A DNA stretch of 64,000 nt from Candidatus Kaiserbacteria bacterium (GTDB lineage Bacteria > Patescibacteriota > Minisyncoccia > Phycocordibacterales > UBA2100): NCBI GenBank assembly GCA_016214605.1, contig JACROD010000020.1, forward strand, positions 30,158-94,157. The letters run 5' to 3'. The notes under the pieces were generated by a model. The model saw only the letters and a program-made list of their open reading frames with translations, made no database searches and had not been told where the DNA came from. Below are positions 1-48,959 of the stretch, in pieces. Position numbers and translations under genes: made by a program. The first letter of the stretch is position 1; the number at the start of each line of letters is the position of its first letter.

Positions 1-1
1 G

Positions 2-352
2 TGGCTCTACGGCGTGCTCTACTTCTTGCTCGTATTCGTCTTCACGTACTTCTACACGGCGATCACCTTCGAGCCGCATCAACTTGCCAAGAATCTCCAG
101 AAGAACGGTGCCTTCATCCCCGGCGTGCGCCCTGGGATCAATACCGCCGAGTATCTCGCCAACATCATCACGCGCATCACGCTCGTCGGTGCCTTGTTCC
201 TCGGTATTTTGGCGGTCTTGCCGCTGATCCTCAAGGGCCTGACCGGTATCACCGCGATCACAATCGGCGGCACCGCACTCCTCATCGTCGTCTCTGTAGT
301 CCTCGATCTCGTCAAAAAGATCGACGCACAGACTTCGATCCGGGAGTATTAA
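2..352 (+). CDS. secY: Preprotein translocase SecY, C-terminal fragment (5' end cut by window edge)
   Basis: Hydrophobic C-terminal TM segments (…LVGALFLGILAVLPLILKGLTGI…) followed by gmk/adk/map, the canonical end of the spc/secY operon. Confidence 0.8.
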   Translation, partial: WLYGVLYFLLVFVFTYFYTAITFEPHQLAKNLQKNGAFIPGVRPGINTAEYLANIITRITLVGALFLGILAVLPLILKGLTGITAITIGGTALLIVVSVVLDLVKKIDAQTSIREY

Positions 353-441
353 GAGGTTGTCGTCAAGAAACGGCACGGGATAGCCGTGCTGTTTTTGTTT
401 TGTAAACAGGCACAAGAGGATAAATTTGTTATAGTATTCGC

Positions 442-1023
442 ATGGGACAAAAACAAGTCGTCGTCATCGCGGGACCTTCGGGGTCCGGCAAGAATGCGGT
501 GATCGACGGGATCATCAAACAATGTCCGCGCTGCGAGCGCTTGGTGACCGCGACGACGCGCAAGCCGCGAGAAGGGGAGATCAACGGCGTCGATTACCAT
601 TTTCTCCCGCGTGATGAGTTTGATCGCGCGCTCGCGAGTGGTGATATCCTTGAGCACCGCTATGTAAGCGCGCTCAATACACACTATGGCGTCTACCGGC
701 CCGACCTCGAAAGCCGACTCATGCTCGGCGAAGTGGTATTGGCGCACCTCGATATCATCGGTGCGCGCTACCTCAAAGAGCACTACAACGCGACGACAAT
801 CTTCATATTGCCGGATTCGTTTGAGGTTCTCGAGACTCGCGTGCGTGGCCGCAACAAAGGCATGACCGATGGGGAGGTGAGGGAGCGTATGGAGATCGCG
901 CACAAGGAGATAACAGAACATGCACCCGAATATGACTATCGGGTGGTCAACGAGAATGGTAAGCTGAAAGAGACTGTATTGAAAGTATTGGAAATACTAC
1001 ATAAAGAAGGATATACTTTCTAG
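442..1023 (+). CDS. gmk: Guanylate kinase
   Basis: P-loop AGPSGSGK, TATTR motif, overall Gmk-like layout, 193 aa. Confidence 0.8.
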   Translation: MGQKQVVVIAGPSGSGKNAVIDGIIKQCPRCERLVTATTRKPREGEINGVDYHFLPRDEFDRALASGDILEHRYVSALNTHYGVYRPDLESRLMLGEVVLAHLDIIGARYLKEHYNATTIFILPDSFEVLETRVRGRNKGMTDGEVRERMEIAHKEITEHAPEYDYRVVNENGKLKETVLKVLEILHKEGYTF

Positions 1024-1079
1024 GTACTTTCATTTCGTTTACGAATTAATATCAATAATAACTCCAGCAAACAATAGAC

Positions 1080-1718
1080 ATGAGCAATGACCAGGGTATA
1101 GACGCAAACGGTTCAAGTTCAACTCCAAACAAAACACAGCCGGTAACACTCCTTTTTTTCGGTTCTCAAGGCTCAGGTAAGGGTACGCAGGTCAGCAAGA
1201 TCATCGGACATCTCACGACCAAATCGGATACCAAGGTGATCCGTATCGACATGGGTGCAGAATTGCGCGCTATGGTGGCGGAAGGAGGACACACGGGACC
1301 GCTCGTGCATGCAGTGATCAATGCCGGCAAGCGTATATCCGATTTCATGCCGATCTACCTATCGACCAAAAGAATGGTCGAGGAGTTTACGGGAGTCGAG
1401 CATATCATCGCCGACGGCCTCGCGCGTGGTGAAGATCAGACAAGGGGCTTCGACGACATGATGCAGTTTTATGGGCGCGGTGATTATCAGATCATCCACC
1501 TCACGCTTTCTGAAGACACTGCGGTCAAAAGGCTTCTCGCGCGCGGTCGTGCCGACGACACCGAAGAAGCCATCCGGGCGCGTCTCGTCTGGAACAAACA
1601 GATCGTCGAGCCGCAGCTTGAGCTTTTGCGCAGGCGCGGTAAGACCGTCTTTGATATCAACGGCGAGCAGGATGCCGAGGCGGTGCATAGGGATATCCTT
1701 TCCGCGCTAAAGTGGTAA
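1080..1718 (+). CDS. adk: Adenylate kinase (divergent, N-terminal extension)
   Basis: GSQGSGKGTQ P-loop (GxxGxGKGTQ), position between secY and map. Confidence 0.75.
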   Translation: MSNDQGIDANGSSSTPNKTQPVTLLFFGSQGSGKGTQVSKIIGHLTTKSDTKVIRIDMGAELRAMVAEGGHTGPLVHAVINAGKRISDFMPIYLSTKRMVEEFTGVEHIIADGLARGEDQTRGFDDMMQFYGRGDYQIIHLTLSEDTAVKRLLARGRADDTEEAIRARLVWNKQIVEPQLELLRRRGKTVFDINGEQDAEAVHRDILSALKW

Positions 1719-3088: not shown

Positions 3089-5857
3089 ATGGAAACGCGC
3101 GGGATGGAGCGGACACGCTCCGCATCAGCGGAAAAATTCAAGTCTCCGCAGGAGGAGCTTGCCTATTTGCGTGAGCGCGTGCGAGAGAAAGAACGCGAGC
3201 TTGATGTCCCGTCGGGTAATCGGGTCGAGAGCGATCGTATCGCCAAGCGCGAGTTGCGTGCATATGGCGAGGTCCCCGCATCACGCGTCTTACACGAGGA
3301 CTTTGTCATACCCGAGCACGAGACGATCCGCCAAATACTCAAGCTCGAACCGGAGACTCACGACAAGCAGATCGACGGCCTTCTCGATATGGTCGCTCAG
3401 CATGGGATCCGCAATGCACTTTCCATCGCCTCGCGCATGAAAAACCCCCACCTCGAAGACGATCTACATCGGGCGATAGTACAGTATATCGCCGAAGGTC
3501 TGCCATCGTCCGGCTATATGCCGGAGAAGGTCCGCAAAGGCCTCAATATGGTGCTTTTTGAGATACATCCGCAGGCGCAGGTCGCTGGCGAACAGGGGCA
3601 AATGCAACAGCACAAACTGGAACAGATGCTCTCATCGTCGGAGCAATTGTATGCCGGACTCTTGTCGCTCGTCGGCGAAGGCGAGTCTTTTTCCCTAGAG
3701 ATCGCGGTAGCCGAGGGTACCGAGGAGGCATCGCTCTATCTCGCCGTACCACGGCAAAAAAAGGACCTGACTGAGCGCCTGATATCATCGGTTTTTCCCA
3801 ATGCGCGCATCGATGAAAACCGCGGCGATTACAATATCTTCAACTACGAAGGTGAACATGCCGCCGCCTATGCCAAGCTTGCCGAGCATCCGGCACGACC
3901 GTTGAAGACCTACGAAGCATTCGAGCACGATCCGCTCAATGTGACCTTGGCCGCCTTTGCACGTATTGCCAAGCACGGTGAAGGTGCGGCTCTGCAGATC
4001 GTCGTCTCGAGCGAAGGAGATCGATACAATCGCCACTACCAAAAGATGCTTCGTGAACTCGAGAAGGGGAAGACCATGGGTGAGGCGCTGCACGTCCCCG
4101 AGACGGTCTTTGGCGAGGTCATACACGATATCGCATCGTCGATATTTACTACGGATGCGGAAAAACAAAAAGAGAAGGAGCACGAAATGCGACGTACATC
4201 CGACTCGGTATCGGCCGAAGCGATCGGTCGCAAGATCAAAAGCCGGATCGTCCCCGTGACGATCCGGCTCGTCACGTCGGCACCGACTGCGGCGCGGGCG
4301 GAGGAATTGCTCAAGAACCTCGCAAGCCCGTTCGGTCAGTTTGACGATGCCAAGGGTAATCGCCTCGTTTTCAAGGAGGTATCGAGCTGGTATCTGGGGG
4401 ACTTTTTGCGCGCGTTTACCTTTCGCGAATTCGACGAGGGGAGTGCTTTGCCGTTTTCGCTCACCGAGATCACGTCGATCTTTCATTTCACCGCCGAGCT
4501 CGTGACCACATCGCGTGAGCTCAAGAAGAGCTACGCCAAACAATCTCCCGCCCCGGTCGAAATGCCGCAAGACGGTATCACGCTTGGTATCAATCGCTAC
4601 GGCGGGTCCGATACGACGGTCAAATTCGGCGCTGCGGATCGTTTGCGTCACGCCTATGTCATCGGCCAGACAGGTACCGGCAAGACGGGCTTGATCAAAA
4701 ACATGATCATGCAAGATATTAAAAATGGCGAGGGTGTCGCTTTCATTGATCCGCACGGCAACGACATCGAAGACGTACTCGCCTCGGTGCCGCCCGAGCG
4801 CTACGACGACGTGATCTACTTCGATCCGGCATATACGGCGCGGCCGATGGGCCTCAATATGCTCGAATACGACGTGACGCGCCCCGAGATGAAGACGCTC
4901 GTCATCGACGAGGTCTACGGCATCTTCCGCAAGCTCTATTCCGATGTGCCGGAAGCGTTTGGCCCGATGTTTGAGCAGTACTATCGCAACGCCGTGCAGC
5001 TCGTACTCGAAGACCCTGATTCGGGCAACACTTTTGTCGAGATCGCACGCATATTCGCCGACGCGGATTTTCGCGATATGAAGCTCGCACACTGCAAGAA
5101 TCCGATCGTCGTGCAGTTTTGGCGCAAAATCGCCGAGCAGGCGCAAGGCGATCCCAGCCTCGAAAACATCGCGCCGTACATCGTCGGCAAGTTCGACGTA
5201 TTCCTCACGAATGATGTCATGCGCCCGATCGTCGCGCAGGAAAAATCCGCTTTCGACTTTCGCGAGATCATGGATGGGCGCAAGATCTTTTTGGCCAATC
5301 TCTCCAAGGGGCGCTTGGGTGATCGCAATACTTCGCTCCTCGGGCTCGTGCTCGTGTCCAAATTCCTCCAGGCGGCATTTTCGCGCGCCGATACACGCGG
5401 GGATATGCCACCTTTCTATTTCTATATCGACGAATTCCAAAACTTTGCCACGCCGTCGATCTCGACGATCCTCTCCGAAGCGCGCAAATACAAACTCTCG
5501 CTCACGATCGCGCACCAATTCATCGCGCAATTGGATGAAAGTATCAGGGATGCCGTGATCGGCAACGTCGGCACCAAGGCGGCGTTCCGTGTTGGCACCA
5601 CCGACGCCGAATTCTTGTCCAAGCAGTTCGAGCCGACCTTCACCGCCGCCGATCTCGAAAACCTCCCCAATCGCAATGCCGTACTCTCGCTCCTGGTCAA
5701 TGGCAAGCCCGCGCGTCCTTTCACTATCGAGACAGTCAACCTCCCACATGTCGACTACAGCGTGGTCGACATGCTCAAAAAACTTTCGTACGATAAATAT
5801 GGAGCCGACCGAGAAGAAGTAGAGGCGGAAATAAGGCGCAAATTTGCCCAATTGTAG
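3089..5857 (+). CDS. TrwB/VirD4/TraG-family (T4SS coupling-protein-like) ATPase with ~520-aa N-terminal extension
   Basis: Walker A GQTGTGKTG, Walker B-like YFYIDEFQNF, QSxxQL-like AHQFIAQL; C-terminal half paralogous to CDS 58920-60203; TTG at 3068 judged less likely than ATG 3089. Confidence 0.75.
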   Translation: METRGMERTRSASAEKFKSPQEELAYLRERVREKERELDVPSGNRVESDRIAKRELRAYGEVPASRVLHEDFVIPEHETIRQILKLEPETHDKQIDGLLDMVAQHGIRNALSIASRMKNPHLEDDLHRAIVQYIAEGLPSSGYMPEKVRKGLNMVLFEIHPQAQVAGEQGQMQQHKLEQMLSSSEQLYAGLLSLVGEGESFSLEIAVAEGTEEASLYLAVPRQKKDLTERLISSVFPNARIDENRGDYNIFNYEGEHAAAYAKLAEHPARPLKTYEAFEHDPLNVTLAAFARIAKHGEGAALQIVVSSEGDRYNRHYQKMLRELEKGKTMGEALHVPETVFGEVIHDIASSIFTTDAEKQKEKEHEMRRTSDSVSAEAIGRKIKSRIVPVTIRLVTSAPTAARAEELLKNLASPFGQFDDAKGNRLVFKEVSSWYLGDFLRAFTFREFDEGSALPFSLTEITSIFHFTAELVTTSRELKKSYAKQSPAPVEMPQDGITLGINRYGGSDTTVKFGAADRLRHAYVIGQTGTGKTGLIKNMIMQDIKNGEGVAFIDPHGNDIEDVLASVPPERYDDVIYFDPAYTARPMGLNMLEYDVTRPEMKTLVIDEVYGIFRKLYSDVPEAFGPMFEQYYRNAVQLVLEDPDSGNTFVEIARIFADADFRDMKLAHCKNPIVVQFWRKIAEQAQGDPSLENIAPYIVGKFDVFLTNDVMRPIVAQEKSAFDFREIMDGRKIFLANLSKGRLGDRNTSLLGLVLVSKFLQAAFSRADTRGDMPPFYFYIDEFQNFATPSISTILSEARKYKLSLTIAHQFIAQLDESIRDAVIGNVGTKAAFRVGTTDAEFLSKQFEPTFTAADLENLPNRNAVLSLLVNGKPARPFTIETVNLPHVDYSVVDMLKKLSYDKYGADREEVEAEIRRKFAQL

Positions 5858-29534: not shown

Positions 29535-29539
29535 TAATT

Positions 29540-29929
29540 GGTGGAGGTGCGGGGAATTGAACCCCGGTCCAAAGAAAGATGTCGTGTATGGTCTACGTCG
29601 CGTAGGTCATCTGGTTTTTTTAAGAACAACGTAATCAAGATGAACAGAAATACGGTGTACCGAGCTCTTGTCTTAGATACATGTCGAGCGGCATGTATCA
29701 GTGCCTGATAGGTTTGACGCCTCGCGAATTCTACTCAGGTGATCAAATTCGGAGACGGAGCTTAGGCTACGAGAGCGTAAGCTGGCTGCAAATCTGCCAT
29801 CTGGATAGGTGACAAAACTGCCCGTGCTACTTTGTTCGCACTTAGGTTTTTGTGGCGGTTTGAAAAGTCACCACAGCTTTGCGACGCACATACAGGAATC
29901 GGTTTCCCTGTCGAAGCCAAGTCACCCCC
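29540..29929 (-). ncRNA. ssrA: tmRNA (SsrA)
   Basis: 5' GGGGGUGACUUGGCUUCGACAGGG…, tRNA-like 3' end GGUUCAAUUCCCCGCACCUCCACCA, acceptor G3:U70, tag frame ending …PAYALVA-UAA, smpB adjacent. Confidence 0.85.
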
Positions 29930-39906: not shown

Positions 39907-39979
39907 CCGTCCGTAGCTCAATGGTTAGAGCACGAAGCTTATACCTTCGGGGTTCCTGGTTCGAGTCCAGGCGGACGGA
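39907..39979 (+). tRNA. tRNA-Ile (anticodon UAU)
   Basis: Canonical cloverleaf folded by hand: acceptor ccgtccg/cggacgg, D gctc/gagc, anticodon stem cgaag/cttcg, loop cUUAUAc, T-arm cctgg-ttcgagt-ccagg; CCA not encoded. Confidence 0.75.
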
Positions 39980-40012
39980 CACGATATTGGTCTTGGTTTT
40001 ATTTGGTATGCT

Positions 40013-40996: not shown

Positions 40997-41041
40997 ATTA
41001 CACCTTGCGTGGCCTATGTGCCATGCCACAATGATGGGTAT

Positions 41042-43108
41042 ATGAAAAAATTTCTTAGCATCCTTTCTATTATTGGAATGATGATACTGCCGCTTGCAGC
41101 AAGCGCGCAGACGGTTGATATCAACAGTCTCATCGCGCAGACACAAGCGCTCATCGCGCAGATCAATGCGCTCAAAGCGCAACAGGGGTATGCATCCTCC
41201 TCTGTTGTCCCGACCACTTCAACCACAAATACTTCATCCAACGCCGGTGCGCTGACTTCCGGTATTTGTCCCACGCTTTCCCGATCGCTCTCGTACGGTG
41301 CCTCGGGCAACGACGTCTCAAGTCTACAGCAATTTCTTGCGCAAGATGTGAGCGTATATCCCGATCAGCTTGTGACGGGGTATTTTGGCACTTTGACCCA
41401 AGCTGCCGTGCAGCGTTGGCAGATGAAGTATGGCGTCGTCTCGTCCGGTGCGCCGGATTCGACCGGTTTTGGCGTCGTAGGGCCGCGCACAAAAGCCGCT
41501 ATCTTGACTCACTGTGTCCCAGGTGTGAATGCTCAGACGGGGACGCCAAATGTTGCGAGTGGTTTCATTACGGTAACGCCCGCGACCGGAAACGTACCGT
41601 TTACAACGACCATCACGGCGACCGTCAATACGTCGAATTCCTGCGTCGGCGCGACGTATATGCTTGATTTTGGCGACGGAGCGAATACGCGGCAGTACAT
41701 TTCGACAGCGGGCAATTGCAGTCAACAGGTAAAGACATTCACCCACACGTATACATCCGGCGGTGTCTATACGATCACGCTATCTGCTGGCGGGCACGAG
41801 ACGACCACGATCGTTACGGTCAACGGTGCCGGCGCACAGACAGGGGCAGTCGACTCGCTCCATGCTTCGGTTGCTTCAGGGACAGCGCCATTTTTCGTGA
41901 CATTCACTGGTTCGGTGAAGGCTGAAGATGCGGGCACTTGTACCTCCAATTGTACGGATGTTATCAATTTTGGCGACGGCGCATCGGTAGCTGTTCCGCT
42001 TCCTGTGAGAAAAGAGGGGTATCAAATATATACGACATACATCGTCAGTCATACATACACGCAGGCGGGGTCCTACATTGCCAGTCTGGTGTCCTCCTCC
42101 ACTGACCCCAATGTGTCCGTACAGACCTACGCATTCACCCAGATCACTGTGTCCGGTGCTCCGGTAGCGACACCTACGCTTTTGATCACGGTCGGCAGTA
42201 ATGCTGTGCAACAAGGAGGTATATTGCCTGTTTTTTGGTCCAGTACGAACGTCGCGACATCTTCTGCGGTCGGCCTGTGGATGGTCAATACACTCTCCGG
42301 AGCTCTCTATCCGCTTGCCATGACGCTCAACACAACAGGAAGTATGAACGCGCCCATTCCCAAGACTGCGGACGAAGGGACAGTGCCTCCGGTAGGTGTC
42401 TATGTGGCATTGGGCAAGATCTACACTCCTGCAGACGCCGTGCTCACGGGTGTGACTCCGGTATATACGGCTCTCGGGCGCAGCGACACATTCAATGTCT
42501 TAGCGAGCACTGCTGATACCAATGTCCTTCCACCAACCGAATCCTACAAGATCCTTTCAGTCGCGACGGGTGTCGGAGGAAATCAATCAGCAGTATTTAT
42601 GAACATTTCGTATCCGACCTGCTCCACCTACAAGGTGGATTGGGGCGATGGAGGAGCTCTCCAAACGGGCGGCGGTGCTTCTGCAGGATGCGGCACGCAA
42701 ACCAACATCCTACTGACTCATACTTATCAGTACAATGGTACGGCGACGGTACGTCTCATGAACGGAAGTGGTACTCAACAGGCAAGCGCGTCGCTTGCGA
42801 TAGCAAACGCAGGAACAACAAGCAAATACGGCATGCTTTCGGTGACTTCCGGCATCGGCGGAGACCCTCTCTATGTGTCGGTCCAGCTCACTGTGCCGGC
42901 ATGCCCTTCATTCTTGCTCGATTGGGGGGATAACACCCTCCCGGCATCACAGACGGCATCGCCAGGGTGCACCGGGACGACGCGCCAGACGCCGACCTTT
43001 AACCACCCCTATGCGGCGCCGGGTTCTTACATCATCAAATTGAGCGACGCATCAAGTACTTTGCAGTCGAGCTCATCGATCCACCTCTCGACGACTACGA
43101 CGCAATAA
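41042..43108 (+). CDS. Secreted protein: PG_binding_1 domain + four PKD-like repeats
   Basis: Signal peptide; …FGDG…HTYT.GG.YTI.L repeated. Confidence 0.65.
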   Translation: MKKFLSILSIIGMMILPLAASAQTVDINSLIAQTQALIAQINALKAQQGYASSSVVPTTSTTNTSSNAGALTSGICPTLSRSLSYGASGNDVSSLQQFLAQDVSVYPDQLVTGYFGTLTQAAVQRWQMKYGVVSSGAPDSTGFGVVGPRTKAAILTHCVPGVNAQTGTPNVASGFITVTPATGNVPFTTTITATVNTSNSCVGATYMLDFGDGANTRQYISTAGNCSQQVKTFTHTYTSGGVYTITLSAGGHETTTIVTVNGAGAQTGAVDSLHASVASGTAPFFVTFTGSVKAEDAGTCTSNCTDVINFGDGASVAVPLPVRKEGYQIYTTYIVSHTYTQAGSYIASLVSSSTDPNVSVQTYAFTQITVSGAPVATPTLLITVGSNAVQQGGILPVFWSSTNVATSSAVGLWMVNTLSGALYPLAMTLNTTGSMNAPIPKTADEGTVPPVGVYVALGKIYTPADAVLTGVTPVYTALGRSDTFNVLASTADTNVLPPTESYKILSVATGVGGNQSAVFMNISYPTCSTYKVDWGDGGALQTGGGASAGCGTQTNILLTHTYQYNGTATVRLMNGSGTQQASASLAIANAGTTSKYGMLSVTSGIGGDPLYVSVQLTVPACPSFLLDWGDNTLPASQTASPGCTGTTRQTPTFNHPYAAPGSYIIKLSDASSTLQSSSSIHLSTTTTQ

Positions 43109-45409
43109 TCATTCAGAATGGAGCTCCGTATGCGAGGTTTCGGTCCGCATGCGGAGCTCTTCGTGTTGTGCGAGTGTGGGGTCGGCCGCCACGATGCGTA
43201 TTGCTTCTTCGCGTGCTGCCTGGATGAGCTTCACGTTTTGGAGTGCTTCCATGCCGATGTCGGATACGCCCCACTGATGTCCGCCGCGCAAATCGCCTGC
43301 GCCGCGCGTCGCGAGATCGGCCTCGGCGAGTACAAATCCATCGTCGGACTTTTCAAGTGTCTTCAGTCGCTTGAGAGATATCTCCCCGGTCGTCTCAGGG
43401 AGGAGGAAACAGATTGGCGGATGCGAACTGCGCATGACGCGGCCGCGCAGCTGGTGGAGCTGTGCCAAGCCGAAGCGCTCGGCACCCTCGATCATGATCG
43501 CGGTCGCGTTGGGGACATTGACGCCGACTTCGACGACGGAGGTCGCCACGAGGATCTGTATTTCATTGCGTTCGAATCGTTTCATTACCTCGTCCTTTTC
43601 CTTTGGCTTCATCGCTCCGTGCAGAAGGCCGACTTCGTATTCGGGAAAGACGTCTTTTTGCAGGCGCTTTTGCTCGGCTTTGGCGGAGCGCGCCTGCAAG
43701 GCGCCGATCTTCGCCGGGTCCGGCTCTTCGATGCGCGGGCATATGACGTACGCTTGGCGGCCTTTCACCAGCTCCGCGCGGACGAGCTCGTATGCTTCGT
43801 CGCGCTGATCTTTTTTCACGATGCGAGTCGCAATCTTGGCGCGTCCCGGCGGGAGCTCGTCGAGGATGGAGAGATCGAGATCGCCATAGATGGTGAGCGC
43901 AAGCGTGCGCGGGATCGGGGTGGCGGTCATGGAGAGGAAGTGAGGTGAAGGGGCGCGGGACATTCCCACATTTCGCCCTGCGGAACTCCCTTCGGTCAAA
44001 CAGTCCTCGGTCAAAATGTGGGAATGTCCCGCGCCCTCACGGGCGTTTTTCTGCGCTAACGCGCGGCGCTGTTTGGTGCCGAAGCGGTGTTGTTCGTCGA
44101 TGATTGTGTACGCGAGGTGTTGGAACTCGACGGATTTTTGGATGAGCGCGTGCGTGCCGATGAGCATGGCGATCTCTCCATTTTTCACCCACTTGAGGAG
44201 TTGTGCGCGCGACACTTCGGTCGCTTTTCCTCTACCGATCTTGGAGGGGAATTTTTTGCACCCACTGCCGGTGATGAGACCGATGTTGATCGGGAGGTGT
44301 GAGAAGTATTCGATGAAGGATTGAAAATGCTGCGTAGCGAGGATCTCCGTCGGCGCCATATAGGCCACCTGCAAGGTCCCGCTTGTACGCCCCGGCGGGC
44401 GCGCAGTGACGATCGCGTAAGCCGTCGCCGCCGCGACCAGAGTCTTGCCTGAGCCGACGTCGCCTTCGAGGAGGCGCGCCATCGGGTGTGGTTTGCCGAA
44501 GTCTTTGAGGATGTCGTCGATCGCACGGATCTGTGCTTTGGTCGGGGGGAAGGCGATCGAGTCGAGGAATTCGTTGGCGCGCGCGTGCGCATCACTGATG
44601 GGAAATGTCTTGAACGAATCATTTTCCGCACGCTCCATCGCGCGCGTGATCTGTATCGTGAGGATCTCTTCAAAGGCAAATCGTTTGCGTGCGGCCGCCG
44701 CATGAGTGTCTTTCTCCGGTGTGTGGATATAAATGAGCGCCTCGGCGAGGTCGGGGAGATGATACCTTTTGAGGATGTCCGGCGGGATTGGATCGACTAG
44801 GGCCTCGTGTACATGCTGTGCAAAGACACGTTCGAGTGCGTGATAAAACCATCGACTCGTGATGCCTCGACTCTCCGGGTAGATAGGAAACAAAGACTTT
44901 GAATCCACTTCGACTGTGTCCGATGTCTCTCCGTTTGCAAAAAGCCCCTTGCTTGAACTGATCGCCGCCCCCACCATATCCGGCGGGATGATCTCGACCT
45001 CGGGGTTGGTCAGATACACGCGGCCCTCTTTGCCGCCGACCGTGCCGGTGACCTTGGCGACAGCGCCCTCGGGGATATACGAAGCGATGTAGGGCTGGTT
45101 GAACCACATGACCTTGACTCGGCCGGTCCCATCCTCAAACCATCCTTCAGTCGCATTGCGTCGACTCTTCCAAAGCTTCTTCGCTTTGAGTCCGTGAAAG
45201 GTCCCGATGAGCGTCACCTTGGTCCCCGGCACGAGCCCCGCCGCATTGGCCGATGCTCCTGCCGTGTCGAAGCGCACCGGGAAGTGATACAGGAGATCAT
45301 GGATCGTATGCAGTCCCAGCCGCTTCAGAGCCGCCTTCTGGTCCGGCACGAGGCGGAAATAATCGGTGATATTACTTGACGGGTCCATAATTATAGTATA
45401 CAATATCAC
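43109..45409 (-). CDS. recG: ATP-dependent DNA helicase RecG
   Basis: Wedge + helicase motifs (GDVGSGKT, DEQHRFG, TATPIPRT); start may be 45386. Confidence 0.9.
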   Translation of the reverse strand: MILYTIIMDPSSNITDYFRLVPDQKAALKRLGLHTIHDLLYHFPVRFDTAGASANAAGLVPGTKVTLIGTFHGLKAKKLWKSRRNATEGWFEDGTGRVKVMWFNQPYIASYIPEGAVAKVTGTVGGKEGRVYLTNPEVEIIPPDMVGAAISSSKGLFANGETSDTVEVDSKSLFPIYPESRGITSRWFYHALERVFAQHVHEALVDPIPPDILKRYHLPDLAEALIYIHTPEKDTHAAAARKRFAFEEILTIQITRAMERAENDSFKTFPISDAHARANEFLDSIAFPPTKAQIRAIDDILKDFGKPHPMARLLEGDVGSGKTLVAAATAYAIVTARPPGRTSGTLQVAYMAPTEILATQHFQSFIEYFSHLPINIGLITGSGCKKFPSKIGRGKATEVSRAQLLKWVKNGEIAMLIGTHALIQKSVEFQHLAYTIIDEQHRFGTKQRRALAQKNAREGAGHSHILTEDCLTEGSSAGRNVGMSRAPSPHFLSMTATPIPRTLALTIYGDLDLSILDELPPGRAKIATRIVKKDQRDEAYELVRAELVKGRQAYVICPRIEEPDPAKIGALQARSAKAEQKRLQKDVFPEYEVGLLHGAMKPKEKDEVMKRFERNEIQILVATSVVEVGVNVPNATAIMIEGAERFGLAQLHQLRGRVMRSSHPPICFLLPETTGEISLKRLKTLEKSDDGFVLAEADLATRGAGDLRGGHQWGVSDIGMEALQNVKLIQAAREEAIRIVAADPTLAQHEELRMRTETSHTELHSE
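43951..44036. repeat. Perfect 21-bp inverted repeat (gggcgcgggacattcccacat … atgtgggaatgtcccgcgccc) with 44-bp spacer, in-frame inside recG
   Basis: Read directly. Confidence 0.85.
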
Positions 45410-45560
45410 TCGGTTAGATCCTTGAGTTCAAGACATCATATCACTTTATCTCTACTTGAGACGAGCTTTTTGCGGCTTTCCGCCAGTATAGGAAGGCCCC
45501 AGCAAGCTCGTCTCATCTGAGGCAAGTCGCCGCTCGACGGTTCGAGCAAGGAGAACGACG

Positions 45561-46364
45561 ATGACGGCAACCCCGATCACGTCCGAACAAGAGAAACAGT
45601 ACAAGCGCTTCGTCGAAGACACGAGCAATCGTGGCCTCAAGGAAGTGATGGATAAAGACGCCATGCAACGATTGCTGTCGAGGGGAGGCGAGTTTCAAGC
45701 CTATTTTCTCGCTGGCGTGCGCCGATTCAGCACGAAGGCACCGGATTATGCGCTCGCGCGCATGATCCTCGGCAAGGACTTCATCTCGCCCGAGGAGATC
45801 GCGAAGTCGCGCGGTCTCGTCTACACCGATGAGCAACTCGCGAAGTTCGGCGAGACGTTGCCGCCGCAGGAAGCGCTCGAATGGTGCCGCGACAATCGCG
45901 CGGGGCTCATGGCTGGGCCGCCGCGGTCGATGTCTCTGCTCGAAGTCCGCGCACTTAAGGATGTCTACTTCTACTCGAAGGAAGGCGGTTGGTATGCTGG
46001 CGAGACGGAGATATTCGCTCGCAATGACAAGGTCGATCCGGTCTGGATCGCGTTCCTCAAGGAGCCAGTCGAGGAATCGTTCAACAAGAATTGGACCGAA
46101 CAGCAAGTGCTGGTCACCAATCCGATGGTCGTGCCCAATGCGGCCGAGGAAACCTGGTGTCTCACGACATACAAAGCGGTGCGGGGCGTCTATCTGCTCC
46201 CGAGCTGTTACGTGAGGATTTCCAGTGTGGACTCGGACGGTTACCGCGTCGGCGTCGGCGACTTCGGCGGGGCGGGCCTCCACGTCGGCCACTACTGGGA
46301 CGACGATCGGGACTCCGACTTGGGCGTCTCGGCTGTCCGGAAGTTCGGCACCTCGAACTCTTGA
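45561..46364 (+). CDS. DGR target (variable) protein, 267 aa, no signal peptide
   Basis: 3' 120 bp = VR. Confidence 0.7.
   Translation: MTATPITSEQEKQYKRFVEDTSNRGLKEVMDKDAMQRLLSRGGEFQAYFLAGVRRFSTKAPDYALARMILGKDFISPEEIAKSRGLVYTDEQLAKFGETLPPQEALEWCRDNRAGLMAGPPRSMSLLEVRALKDVYFYSKEGGWYAGETEIFARNDKVDPVWIAFLKEPVEESFNKNWTEQQVLVTNPMVVPNAAEETWCLTTYKAVRGVYLLPSCYVRISSVDSDGYRVGVGDFGGAGLHVGHYWDDDRDSDLGVSAVRKFGTSNS
46225..46344 (+). repeat. DGR variable region (VR)
   Basis: 120-bp match to TR with 13 mismatches, all at TR adenines. Confidence 0.85.
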
Positions 46365-46391
46365 ATGTTCGGCTCTTTTTGAACCATTGAA

Positions 46392-46413
46392 CCCTCGCGC
46401 GTCAGCGCGAGGG
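46392..46413 (+). terminator. GC-rich hairpin (ccctcgcgc gtca gcgcgaggg) + T-run, 48 nt downstream of VR
   Basis: Read directly; typical position of DGR VR-flanking stem-loop. Confidence 0.5.
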
Positions 46414-46714
46414 TTTTCTGTTTTGATATTTTCTTGCTATGATTTTGATATCTTGCTAATGAAGATCAGGCTACGGTTTGATCTCGCGGGATGTCTCGCC
46501 TCATACTCGACAGAGTGCCGGCGTTTAAGGATTTCGGCAGAGTGCGAAGAGGATAGAGATTCGAACTTCTTGCTCGTTTCTGGTGGAGATGTCCGCGAGG
46601 GCTACTCCCGGATAAAATTCAGGACCGAGAGGATATAGGATTGAGGGCAACCCATCGGTAAACCTCAAGATCCGGTGCCGCGCACAAGCGGGTCATAGAT
46701 GGAAACGGGCAAAC

Positions 46715-46834
46715 ATGTGGACTCGGACGGTAACCGCGTCAACGTCGGCGACTTCGACGGGACGGGCCTCAACGTCAACAACAACTGGGACGACAATCGG
46801 AACTCCGACTTGGGCGTCTCGGCTGTCCGGAAGT
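46715..46834 (+). repeat. DGR template region (TR)
   Basis: See VR; AAC-rich. Confidence 0.85.
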
Positions 46835-46883
46835 CATATCTCTTTCCTACAAATACTCCCGGTTGAAAGGCTGGAGTATTTCG

Positions 46884-47240
46884 TTACCGATCTCTACTTG
46901 ATCTGATCCATCCGCCGAGCATTCGGCCGATCTCATCAATATCGGATTGGAGAATGACGTATTTCTTATTGTCGATTGCTTTCACATCGGACATGAGTCT
47001 GATGAATACGCGCAAAAGATTCAATCTTGAACTCGCGTTTTCGAGGACGGGTAGTTTTTCGGCTTTTCCGATGTGTCCGGCAAGGAGCACCGCTTCCAAT
47101 ATCTCGAGTATAAGCGATTCGCATTTTTGCCAGATCGTGTAGCGATCCTGCCTCGAGATATCGGCGCGATATCCGTAAAAGGTCTTGTACAGATCGTACG
47201 TTTTCTTGAAGATCGGAGTATCAAAATCATTCATACGCAT
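46884..47240 (-). CDS. avd: Accessory variability determinant (Avd)-like four-helix-bundle protein
   Basis: 118 aa, between TR and RT, start codon overlaps RT start divergently. Confidence 0.6.
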   Translation of the reverse strand: MRMNDFDTPIFKKTYDLYKTFYGYRADISRQDRYTIWQKCESLILEILEAVLLAGHIGKAEKLPVLENASSRLNLLRVFIRLMSDVKAIDNKKYVILQSDIDEIGRMLGGWIRSSRDR

Positions 47241-48287
47241 GAAAATCTACGAAGATGTATACCAGTCTATTATTTCGCCGGAGAATCTCTTTGCCGCATG
47301 GCAAGTATTCAAAAGCGATAAGCGAAACAAGGCAGATGTGGCGGAGTTCGAGCAAAAAGTCGAACGGCACATCTTTCAACTGCATCGCGATTTGCGCTAC
47401 AAGACGTACCGACATGGACCGTATCACGGATTCTGGATCCACGATCCAAAACGCCGCCGGATACACAAAGCGACGGTGCGTGACAGGGTGCTTCATCATG
47501 CAATCTTTCGCGTACTCAATCCCATCTTCGAGCCTACATTCATACCGACTTCTTTTTCCTGTCGGATTGGAAAAGGCACGCACAAAGGCGTGATGGCGGT
47601 AAGCGACATGCTTCGCGCGGAAAGCCACAACAATACGCGCACGTGCTGGGCGCTCAAATGCGACGTGCGGAGATTCTTCGACAGCGTCGATCATGCGATT
47701 CTCCTTCGGATTCTTGAAAAGAGGATCAAAGACACAGACACCTGCGCCCTGCTCCGGCACATAGTAGGGAGTTACTCTGCGGATAGTTGCGGGGGGGGGG
47801 TCTTATGGGTATTCCCATCGGCAATCTCACTTCGCAGCTCTTTGCGAATATCTACATGAATGAACTGGATCAGTTTGTGAAGCATGAGTTGAAGGTAAAG
47901 CGATATGCGCGGTACACGGATGATTTTATCATTGTATCGGCGGATCGCGAGTACCTCGCATTGCTCATCCCACGCATCGAGTTGTTTTTACAGACGAGAC
48001 TTCGGCTCAGCTTGCATCCGCGTAAAGTCGAGATACGTGCATATCACCGAGGAATCGATTTTTTAGGATACGTGATCTTGTCGCATCACATGCGGCTTCG
48101 CACCAAGACGAAGAAGCGCATGATCCGCAAGCTCCGCGAACGTGTCGTAGCGTACCGGAGCGGGCACATCAAAGAAGAGCAACTGCTTGGCTCACTGCGA
48201 TCGTACCTGGGCGTGCTTTCGCACGCCGATGCATATGGTCTGATCGAGGCGCTCAAGAATGACTTTTGGTTTTGGTTGCATGAATAA
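47239..48287 (+). CDS. DGR reverse transcriptase, interrupted by frameshift at G10 tract 47791-47800
   Basis: N-term MKIYEDVYQSIISPENLFAAW, motif 4 IPIGNLTSQ (DGR-type SQ), motif C YTDD; ORFs 47185-47859 and 47787-48287 join across G10. Confidence 0.85.
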
Positions 48288-48415
48288 CACGCCGCTGTTC
48301 GGATTCATCTGCGGATTCGGGATTATTCACGGACGTCAATTACGTGGCGCATTCCCACTGTTGGGAATTCCGATACCTCAGGTGGAACTGGACTGCTTCA
48401 ATCCGCTCACAATGG

Positions 48416-48443
48416 TTGACAACCGCCTCACTGTTGGTATCAT
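48416..48443 (+). promoter_or_regulatory. Sigma70-like promoter (TTGACA-16-TATCAT) upstream of small ORF/mazF-like pair
   Basis: Read directly. Confidence 0.35.
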
Positions 48444-48469
48444 ATGCGTATATGAAAGCTACCTCAACG

Positions 48470-48628
48470 ATGAAAAAAATAAAAAGCTCTCGAACGCGGC
48501 ATGGTATAAAAAAGTTCGCACCAGTTGCCGGGACAAAAACACACGCCAAGTCTTTGAGTGAATTTGCATTTTGGAAACAAATCGCTTTACAACAGCAGGC
48601 GCTTCTCCATGCAAAAAATAGGACATAA
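48470..48628 (+). CDS. Putative small antitoxin (52 aa), overlaps toxin start
   Basis: Position/overlap only. Confidence 0.25.
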   Translation: MKKIKSSRTRHGIKKFAPVAGTKTHAKSLSEFAFWKQIALQQQALLHAKNRT

Positions 48629-48959
48629 GCACATACGGAAGGGAGACGTGTGGCTGATCGAGAATATGGTCGCGATAGGCCATATGCAAAAGGGAACGCG
48701 CCCCCATGTCGTAGTGACGCAAGTGACGGGCGAGACGGTTACCGTCGCACCCTGCACATCCGTTCGCAAGACGATTCGTCATAAATATGTCGTGGAAATA
48801 CGGCCCACCAAAGACAACGGTCTGCGTACCGTTTCGTTCATCTTGCTCTCGCAGTCGTTTGCCGCCGATACCAGTCTCTTGCAAAAAAGAATCGGGCATC
48901 TCGATGTAAACGAGATCGCTCGCGTTCAACTCGAGTATGTGAAGTACGTGACCGATTGA
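48609..48959 (+). CDS. PemK/MazF-family toxin-like protein
   Basis: GDVWLIE…TRPHVVVTQ…VAPCTS…. Confidence 0.6.
   Translation: MQKIGHKHIRKGDVWLIENMVAIGHMQKGTRPHVVVTQVTGETVTVAPCTSVRKTIRHKYVVEIRPTKDNGLRTVSFILLSQSFAADTSLLQKRIGHLDVNEIARVQLEYVKYVTD

Follow-up and report, generated by a model that had tools for sequence, protein, structure and literature searches.

A chromosomal diversity-generating retroelement of Candidatus Kaiserbacteria with a G tract in its reverse transcriptase gene, a candidate phase-variable switch

Introduction

The closest described counterpart of the element reported here, a chromosomal diversity-generating retroelement (DGR) in a 64-kb stretch of DNA from a Candidatus Kaiserbacteria (Patescibacteria) bacterium (hereafter the window), is the DGR of Bordetella phage BPP-1 (mtd-VR/avd/TR/brt). 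The two share adenine-specific transfer of sequence from a template repeat (TR) to a variable repeat (VR), an Avd protein, and a reverse transcriptase (RT) of the bRT kind. In both, the VR is placed at the 3′ end of a gene whose product has a C-type-lectin fold, the mutable adenines fall mostly in AAC codons, and a GC-rich inverted repeat stands downstream of the VR (PMC5758913). In the Bordetella phage element, a structured spacer of 140 nt downstream of the TR is needed for cis-priming (bioRxiv 10.1101/2023.10.23.563531). The DGRs collected from the candidate phyla radiation (CPR) by Wu et al. 2018 (PMC5758913) come from the same host group, Patescibacteria/Paceibacterota, and resemble the present element in having RTs that cluster apart from those of other DGRs and targets without recognizable domains.

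How a cellular DGR avoids overwriting a useful variant and yet still diversifies is an open question of its regulation. A comparison of another kind is offered by the poly-G/C and dinucleotide contingency loci of Campylobacter, Neisseria, Haemophilus, and Helicobacter, among them the phasevarion methyltransferases, in which, as in the loci described below, the reading frame depends on an intragenic repeat of 9 to 11 G's, ON alleles coexist with OFF alleles, and the gated enzyme alters other phenotypes; in Campylobacter jejuni the tracts have a modal length of 9 (PMC3401435). In the window, a run of ten G's interrupts the RT gene. We propose, as a reading that we hold to be fairly probable from the sequences at hand, that this repeat is a phase-variable ON/OFF switch on DGR mutagenesis and that the window records its OFF state.

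Results

The reverse transcriptase is interrupted at a G10 tract

The RT is encoded by two open reading frames (ORFs) in different frames, ORF1 at 47239-47859 (206 aa) and ORF2 at 47787-48287 (166 aa), which meet at the longest homopolymer of the window. The gene is laid out as follows.

47239-47790, plus strand: N-terminal half of the RT, 184 aa, with the N-terminal extension, the fingers, and motifs 1 to 3 (frame 1)
47791-47800, plus strand: simple-sequence repeat of ten G's (G10) within the loop-coding linker that leads into RT motif 4; −1 frame break
47799-48287, plus strand: C-terminal half of the RT, 162 aa, with GLMGIPIGNLTSQ, YTDD, and the thumb (−1 frame)

As sequenced, the frame of the N-terminal half stays open until a stop at 47859, and its product of 206 aa lacks motif 4 (IGNLTSQ) and the YTDD catalytic motif. 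This product, annotated at NCBI as hypothetical protein HZC00_03690, matches positions 9 to 99 of the RVT_1 profile, and ORF2, which holds IGNLTSQ and YTDD, matches positions 118 to 205. The addition of one G (G11) or the loss of two (G8) restores a continuous RT of 350 or 349 aa, respectively, that matches full-length relatives from end to end. A preliminary description of the window had reported an RT with both motifs; the motifs are indeed present, but the RT is not one ORF, and they sit in the −1 frame.

Residues 6 to 343 of the merged RT align with PDB entry 8ub7_A (the Bordetella-phage bRT sequence; E = 1.3e-48), and other RT classes reach 1.6e-24 or worse (group-II-like RTs, about 1e-24). 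The group II intron RT/maturase model TIGR04416 scored 150.7 bits against a cutoff of 300 and was rejected, as was the retron St85 model, with 57 bits against a cutoff of 235. A search of the window with Rfam retrieved no group II intron RNA and no retron RNA family. With 8ub7_A as the best PDB relative and both competing models below their cutoffs, the earlier placement of the enzyme among DGR RTs, and not with group II introns or retrons, was borne out.

The break is shared with the nearest relatives, and both halves of the gene are conserved

The window comes from an NCBI metagenome-assembled genome (MAG). The nearest relative by target protein (75% identity), the ENA k141 contig L001, has the same layout, and two JGI metagenome contigs, L082 and L084, are 99.85% identical to L001. 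All three carry G10 at the same codon and the same −1 break as the window. Because the same G10 thus occurs in four assemblies from different pipelines, a random sequencing error is unlikely. L001 differs from L082 and L084 at only eight positions, all within 80 nt (L001 6737-6815) and not adenine specific, which fall in a minus-strand ORF of 120 aa that contains no known domain.

The RT genes of the window and L001 share 78 to 83% nucleotide identity, with a dS of 0.76 to 1.08. The upstream half (dS, 0.76; dN/dS, 0.115) and the downstream half read in its own frame (dS, 1.08; dN/dS, 0.12) contain no other lesions. In the other two frames, the downstream half gives dN/dS values of 1.1 to 1.9 and 4 to 9 stops, which shows that this half has remained coding in its own frame. 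The ratios indicate that both halves are under strong purifying selection, and dN/dS near 0.12 in both, with no further lesions, is not the pattern expected of a gene dead since the common ancestor.

Simple repeats recur in the RT linker of relatives

When species-representative genomes were scanned and the matches ranked by full-length similarity, 80 in-frame RTs but no poly-G were retrieved; that all were in frame is a selection effect of this ranking. A protein database query with ORF1 including its out-of-frame tail retrieved dozens of N-terminal fragments of 183 to 218 aa, all of which terminate in one and the same variable loop, immediately ahead of GIPIGNLTSQ. In every case the break coincides with a simple repeat, which is poly-G or (GA)n, the latter read as RERERE. 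A census of repeat and frame among 169 RT relatives gave the following counts.

No repeat in the loop: 111 in frame, 5 truncated or split
(GA)n in the loop: 5 in frame, 28 truncated or split
Poly-G in the loop: 4 in frame, 13 truncated or split

About four-fifths of the repeat-bearing RTs in this sample are therefore split. For both repeat types, the out-of-frame tails occupy both alternative frames. Within clusters of at least 90% identity, full-length proteins (344 to 364 aa) occur side by side with fragments from which they differ at the repeat alone, such as SASAGGGSKGIPIGN versus SASAGGGF* and SASAGGGVLKAFR*, or CERERERESKTL versus TRERERVKRC... Eight contigs that are 99.2 to 99.9% identical and have identical flanks carry G9 (three contigs, in frame), G10 (four contigs), or G11 (one contig), and several of them come from different samples of one groundwater project. 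Other relatives have G18 or an out-of-frame (GA)8.5, in-frame representatives contain (GA)n tracts of up to 39 nt, and one allele recurs in 10 contigs from different samples.

In 644 kb of nonredundant related loci, the density of long repeats in the 120-nt RT linker is about 42 times that found elsewhere. Of the 21 repeats outside the linker, 13 belong to a more distant subclade (L058, L062-L065, L067, L070, L073-L075, and L078-L080), where they precede the RT start by no more than about 70 nt (near locus positions 3430 to 3490). These are (GT)6-13, poly-G of 9 to 12, or (CT)18, placed in the short region from which avd and the RT gene diverge, and this region is proposed as a second position for a repeat switch. 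Two repeat chemistries, a second site, frame states of all three kinds, and the presence of both ON and OFF alleles within populations are together the mark of contingency loci varied by slipped-strand mispairing and do not fit a programmed frameshift of fixed direction.

The RT fragments P0255, P0258, P0260, P0261, P0264, P0269, P0275, and P0288 end inside RERERE without a stop, at a contig end. Several contigs (L091 and L094-L096) begin about 430 nt upstream of avd, near the TR. This suggests that assemblies break both at the repeat and at the TR/VR duplication.

TR, VR, target, and Avd identify the locus as a DGR

The four DGR components are all present, in the order target (with the VR), TR, avd (reversed), and RT. 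The adenine-only differences between TR and VR, together with a bAvd protein, a bRT-like RT, and a target with a C-type-lectin fold, indicate that the locus is a genuine DGR. It had been described beforehand as complete, and the components, their order, and the adenine signature stand exactly as described; the exception is the RT, whose frame is interrupted in G10. The repeats and the target gene comprise the following features.

45561-46364, plus strand: DGR target gene, 267 aa, with a helical N-terminal part and a C-terminal C-type-lectin-fold domain that contains the VR
46226-46345, plus strand: VR, the last 40 codons of the variable domain of the target
46312-46345, plus strand: 3′ segment of the VR resembling an initiation of mutagenic homing (IMH) site; 34 nt, the same in the TR, with 4 A's and none changed
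46716-46835, plus strand: TR, with 26 A's and 7 AAC codons in the target frame
45376-45404, plus strand: promoter-like site TTGACG-17-TACAAT upstream of the target (consensus scan, 10 of 12 matches)
46389-46416, plus strand: GC-rich hairpin with a T-run 3′ of the VR (12-bp stem, −25.4 kcal/mol)

A repeat search paired 46226-46344 with 46716-46834 at an offset of 490 nt, and base-by-base comparison added 46345/46835, for 120 nt. The 120-bp repeat pair named in the preliminary description is thus confirmed, with coordinates shifted by one base. There are 12 internal mismatches and one at the 5′ boundary (46225/46715), and the TR has A at 13 of 13. The VR bases at these positions are G (nine), T (two), and C (two), exactly as claimed from inspection by eye, and the pairwise alignment, extended by one base, contains no mismatch at a position other than A. 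The probability that 13 random mismatches all hit A's, given 27 A's in 120 positions, is 2.3e-10. Every internal change falls at codon position 1 or 2 of the coding sequence (CDS) 45561-46364, and AAC codons hold 9 of the 13 changes, in agreement with the observation that the TR adenines sit mostly in such codons.

By analogy with the Bordetella phage DGR (PMC5758913), the unmutated 34-nt segment at 46312-46345 is a putative IMH. In the window, the 3′ segments corresponding to IMH (VR) and IMH* (TR) are identical; L001 and L097 have C in the TR versus A in the VR, 4 nt before the repeat end. A search of the 64 kb with the 28-nt 3′ end of the TR, allowing up to 3 mismatches, matched only the VR and the TR, and no second VR was found. 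The VR is identical in the three assemblies of the L001 strain and across seven contigs (G9, G10, and G11) of the L097 population, so that a comparison of VRs among near-identical contigs for ongoing diversification yielded no differences.

The target protein is identical to NCBI HZC00_03675 (Candidatus Kaiserbacteria bacterium) and its variable domain was found to have the C-type-lectin fold. Its family comprises at least 353 Patescibacteria proteins and lacks a Pfam domain. An alignment of 43 members shows good conservation over the first ~220 residues and hypervariability in the last ~45, at the columns that match TR adenines. No signal peptide was obvious by eye. The site at 45376-45404 is the presumed target promoter. 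Between it and the start codon, the 5′ untranslated region contains an inverted repeat (45457-45515) with 25-nt arms that are 84% complementary and 9 nt apart.

The hairpin at 46389-46416 had been noted beforehand as a GC hairpin with a T-run after the VR, and it is present with the dimensions given above. It may be either the intrinsic terminator of the target gene or the target-site inverted repeat of the DGR, or both. L001 retains its stem through compensatory changes, and the GC-rich inverted repeat that follows the VR is absent in that form after the TR.

The avd gene lies head to head with the RT gene.

46884-47240, minus strand: avd, 118 aa, or 116 aa if translated from the second ATG (47234), as in relatives

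Avd matches Pfam PF22296 (bAvd) with an E value of 1.4e-16 and 61.3 bits (cutoff, 40), and NCBIfam NF033474 (DivGenRetAVD) with 77.7 bits, just under the cutoff of 80. Its ATG (47240-47238) overlaps that of the RT (47239-47241), so that the minus-strand Avd of 118 aa and its divergent start overlap, both pointed out previously, hold on profile and coordinates alike. In all relatives inspected, avd and the RT gene are head to head with start codons that overlap or abut (window, 47234-47241; L097, 3500/3501; L086, 3500/3501). The overlap leaves no intergenic room for promoters or ribosome-binding sites, and transcripts of the RT may arise by read-through that starts at the leader-TR promoter (see below) and crosses antisense avd.

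A conserved RNA leader precedes the TR

Between the target terminator and the TR lie 290 nt that are 86.8% identical to L001, versus 78 to 84% for the flanking genes. This region and its surroundings contain the following features.

46438-46443, plus strand: −10-like box TATGAT before the leader (TATAAT in the family consensus, from the alignment)
46450-46715, plus strand: conserved structured RNA leader of ~270 nt, directly 5′ of the TR
46849-46883, plus strand: hairpin between the TR and the avd stop (−12.7 kcal/mol)

Transcription would start about 7 nt downstream of the −10-like box. The conserved region spans 46426-46715 in the window, 2163-2455 in L001, and 2704-2985 in L097 and occurs in about 60 other loci; nhmmer placed the leader directly 5′ of the TR in 65 fetched loci. 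In an alignment of 31 sequences, RNAalifold predicted nine helices with 61 pairs, 45 of which show compensatory changes. Paired cells amounted to 95.8%, versus 80.0% in shuffles (0 of 500 reached the observed value), and the covariation score was 0.553, versus 0.227 in shuffles and 0.08 to 0.14 in slid controls. Many invariant G-U pairs assign the structure to the plus strand, the strand of the TR. No Rfam family matched the leader at gathering or permissive thresholds.

Downstream of the TR, 48 nt with one hairpin separate it from the avd stop, and a 3′ structured priming spacer of the Bordetella-phage type is absent. The hairpin at 46849-46883, which the alignment shows at the same place with other stem sequences in more than 20 relatives, is probably the terminator of the leader-TR RNA and, on the other strand, of avd. 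A covariation-backed pairing between the leader and the sequence after the TR, analogous to the stop duplex of the phage, was not found; RNAalifold gives only an invariant GACUC/GCAGUC pairing across the TR, which shows no covariation. By analogy with the phage element, the role of priming the cDNA may have moved from the 3′ spacer to the 5′ leader, which may be its permuted equivalent.

Genomic surroundings

The DGR is flanked by recG on one side and by a gene for a MazF/PemK-like toxin on the other. The other features of note in and around the locus are listed here.

43109-45409, minus strand: recG
L097, L098, L100, and L102, positions 1-1553, minus strand: recG copies in relatives
48558-48959, plus strand: PemK/MazF-like toxin gene (Pfam E = 8e-16), immediately 3′ of the RT
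48416-48443: promoter-like site near the toxin gene
41009-43108, plus strand: 699-aa protein with a peptidoglycan-binding domain and PKD repeats, upstream of recG
39907-39980, plus strand: tRNA-Ile with anticodon TAT, unusual in bacteria
29539-29929, minus strand: transfer-messenger RNA (tmRNA), the sole other RNA gene detected in the window

The order recG-target-TR-avd-RT is also found in the L097 population, whose RT is ~68% identical to that of the window; its recurrence beside recG suggests vertical inheritance at a fixed chromosomal site. The neighbor of the DGR in L001 is ruvA, not recG. The 100-aa ORF at 48259-48561 that precedes the toxin gene could encode its antitoxin, and the 699-aa protein is probably a cell-surface protein.

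Discussion

A proposed repeat-gated reverse transcriptase

Following the established DGR mechanism, the leader (~270 nt), the 120-nt TR, and the short terminator hairpin would be transcribed as one RNA, which the RT and Avd would copy to cDNA with misincorporation opposite adenines. This cDNA would replace the VR at the 3′ end of the target, so that about 12 to 22 adenine-templated positions would be rerandomized in the ligand-binding face of the C-type-lectin-fold domain. With G10 the frame is broken, and only the 206-aa fragment, predicted to be catalytically dead, would be made. The G tract lies in the linker between the finger and palm motifs of the RT, and replication slippage to G11 or G8 would yield the RT of 349 to 350 aa and turn the system ON; slippage back would turn it OFF and lock in the new VR. 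Such a switch would be stochastic, heritable, and reversible, with most cells keeping their VR and a minority diversifying. Slippage would presumably occur in the window's own lineage and serve there as a physiological regulator, and the role given to the leader is presumed in the same way. That Patescibacteria DGRs as a family are governed by simple repeats, in the RT loop or upstream of the RT start, and use a permuted DGR RNA with a 5′ leader, is a generalization to which we give even chances.

Several observations weigh against a switch of this kind. No ON allele or length variation was seen in the window's own lineage, where the window, L001, L082, and L084 all have G10, and the evidence for length polymorphism comes from sister clades with RTs 60 to 70% identical. 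Homopolymer lengths in short-read assemblies may be off by one base. The consensus VRs show no link between repeat state and VR turnover. Finally, the three closest poly-G lineages (the window, L001 with its three assemblies, and probably also P0243) would each need exactly one more G to be in frame, a state that would fit fixed −1 recoding as well.

Alternative explanations

Programmed recoding of this sort, in which G10 is functional and a low, constitutive level of full-length RT arises through transcriptional slippage on a C10 template or −1 frameshifting on G GGG GGG, would also account for the stability of G10 across four assemblies and for purifying selection on both RT halves. We nevertheless consider it unlikely. 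Recoding would call for one conserved slippery motif and a fixed direction, whereas the family has two repeat types of variable length, the right frame and both wrong ones are found among relatives, and in-frame and out-of-frame alleles occur within one population. The repeat is often (GA)n, which is not known to be slippery in either process, a conserved stimulator downstream was not identified, and the predicted fold pairs the G-run with nearby pyrimidines only. Moreover, efficient transcriptional slippage in bacteria is documented for A/T runs rather than for G runs. The tract could also have been misread, its true length being G11 or G8 in an intact RT of a standard, active DGR. A systematic undercount by one base would not give both wrong frames, however, and the G10 comes from different projects and assemblers (an NCBI MAG, an ENA k141 contig, and two JGI metagenomes); dozens of relatives are split at repeats, (GA)n included, and one allele appears in 10 contigs. 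For these reasons an assembly error is quite unlikely, even though homopolymers of 10 or more are error prone and the assemblies are all consensus sequences.

It is very improbable that the element is decaying, with the RT a pseudogene and the TR/VR differences relics of past activity. The downstream half has kept a dN/dS of 0.12 over a dS of ~1 with no stops or frameshifts in either lineage, and Avd, TR, leader RNA, and target are all intact and conserved; the broken ORF itself and a VR that is invariant across assemblies of related strains are what decay would explain. We give as little credence to a split enzyme, in which the two halves are translated separately, the second in its own frame from a TTG start at 47787, and assemble into an active RT. 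In the window, in L001, and in the P0016 cluster, the tract is indeed closely preceded by a TTG or GTG in the C-terminal frame, and the variable loop that contains the break is shorter in the solved bRT. Yet there is no good ribosome-binding site at the right spacing, since the GGGAG 14 nt upstream encodes the conserved VGSY, the other wrong frame has no such start, and single-chain in-frame alleles are the norm where no repeat is present (111 of 116).

Implications and comparison with known systems

If the proposal of a repeat-gated RT is correct, only a small subpopulation, heritable and reversible, would undergo mutagenesis, and a second, simpler device of hypermutation would stochastically switch targeted protein hypermutation itself. 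Many Patescibacteria DGRs would be missed, or called dead, by surveys in which an intact RT ORF is a requirement. The 5′ leader would represent a second natural solution to the priming of DGR cDNA, comparable with the phage ribonucleoprotein structure, and may help in engineering compact DGR-based mutagenesis tools. The literature searched, with the CPR survey of Paul et al. 2017 lying outside the search, contains no report of repeats or frameshifts in DGR RTs or of a 5′ leader RNA.

Compared with the DGR of BPP-1, the present element has the order target-TR-avd (reversed)-RT and is chromosomal, next to recG, instead of phage-borne. It has 48 nt with one hairpin 3′ of the TR and a covarying leader of ~270 nt 5′ of it, its IMH-like segment is identical in VR and TR, and its RT is interrupted by G10. 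The variable proteins TvpA of Treponema denticola and TaqVP of Thermus aquaticus have only 9 to 15% sequence identity to the target, whose N-terminal helical part of ~110 residues has no counterpart in them. The CPR set of DGRs differs in how it was gathered, since such surveys start from intact RT ORFs, and split alleles would be excluded. Unlike the contingency loci of host-adapted pathogens, finally, the repeats described here occur in uncultivated, environmental, ultrasmall bacteria, and the enzyme that they would gate is a targeted mutator, so that one hypermutable site would control another.

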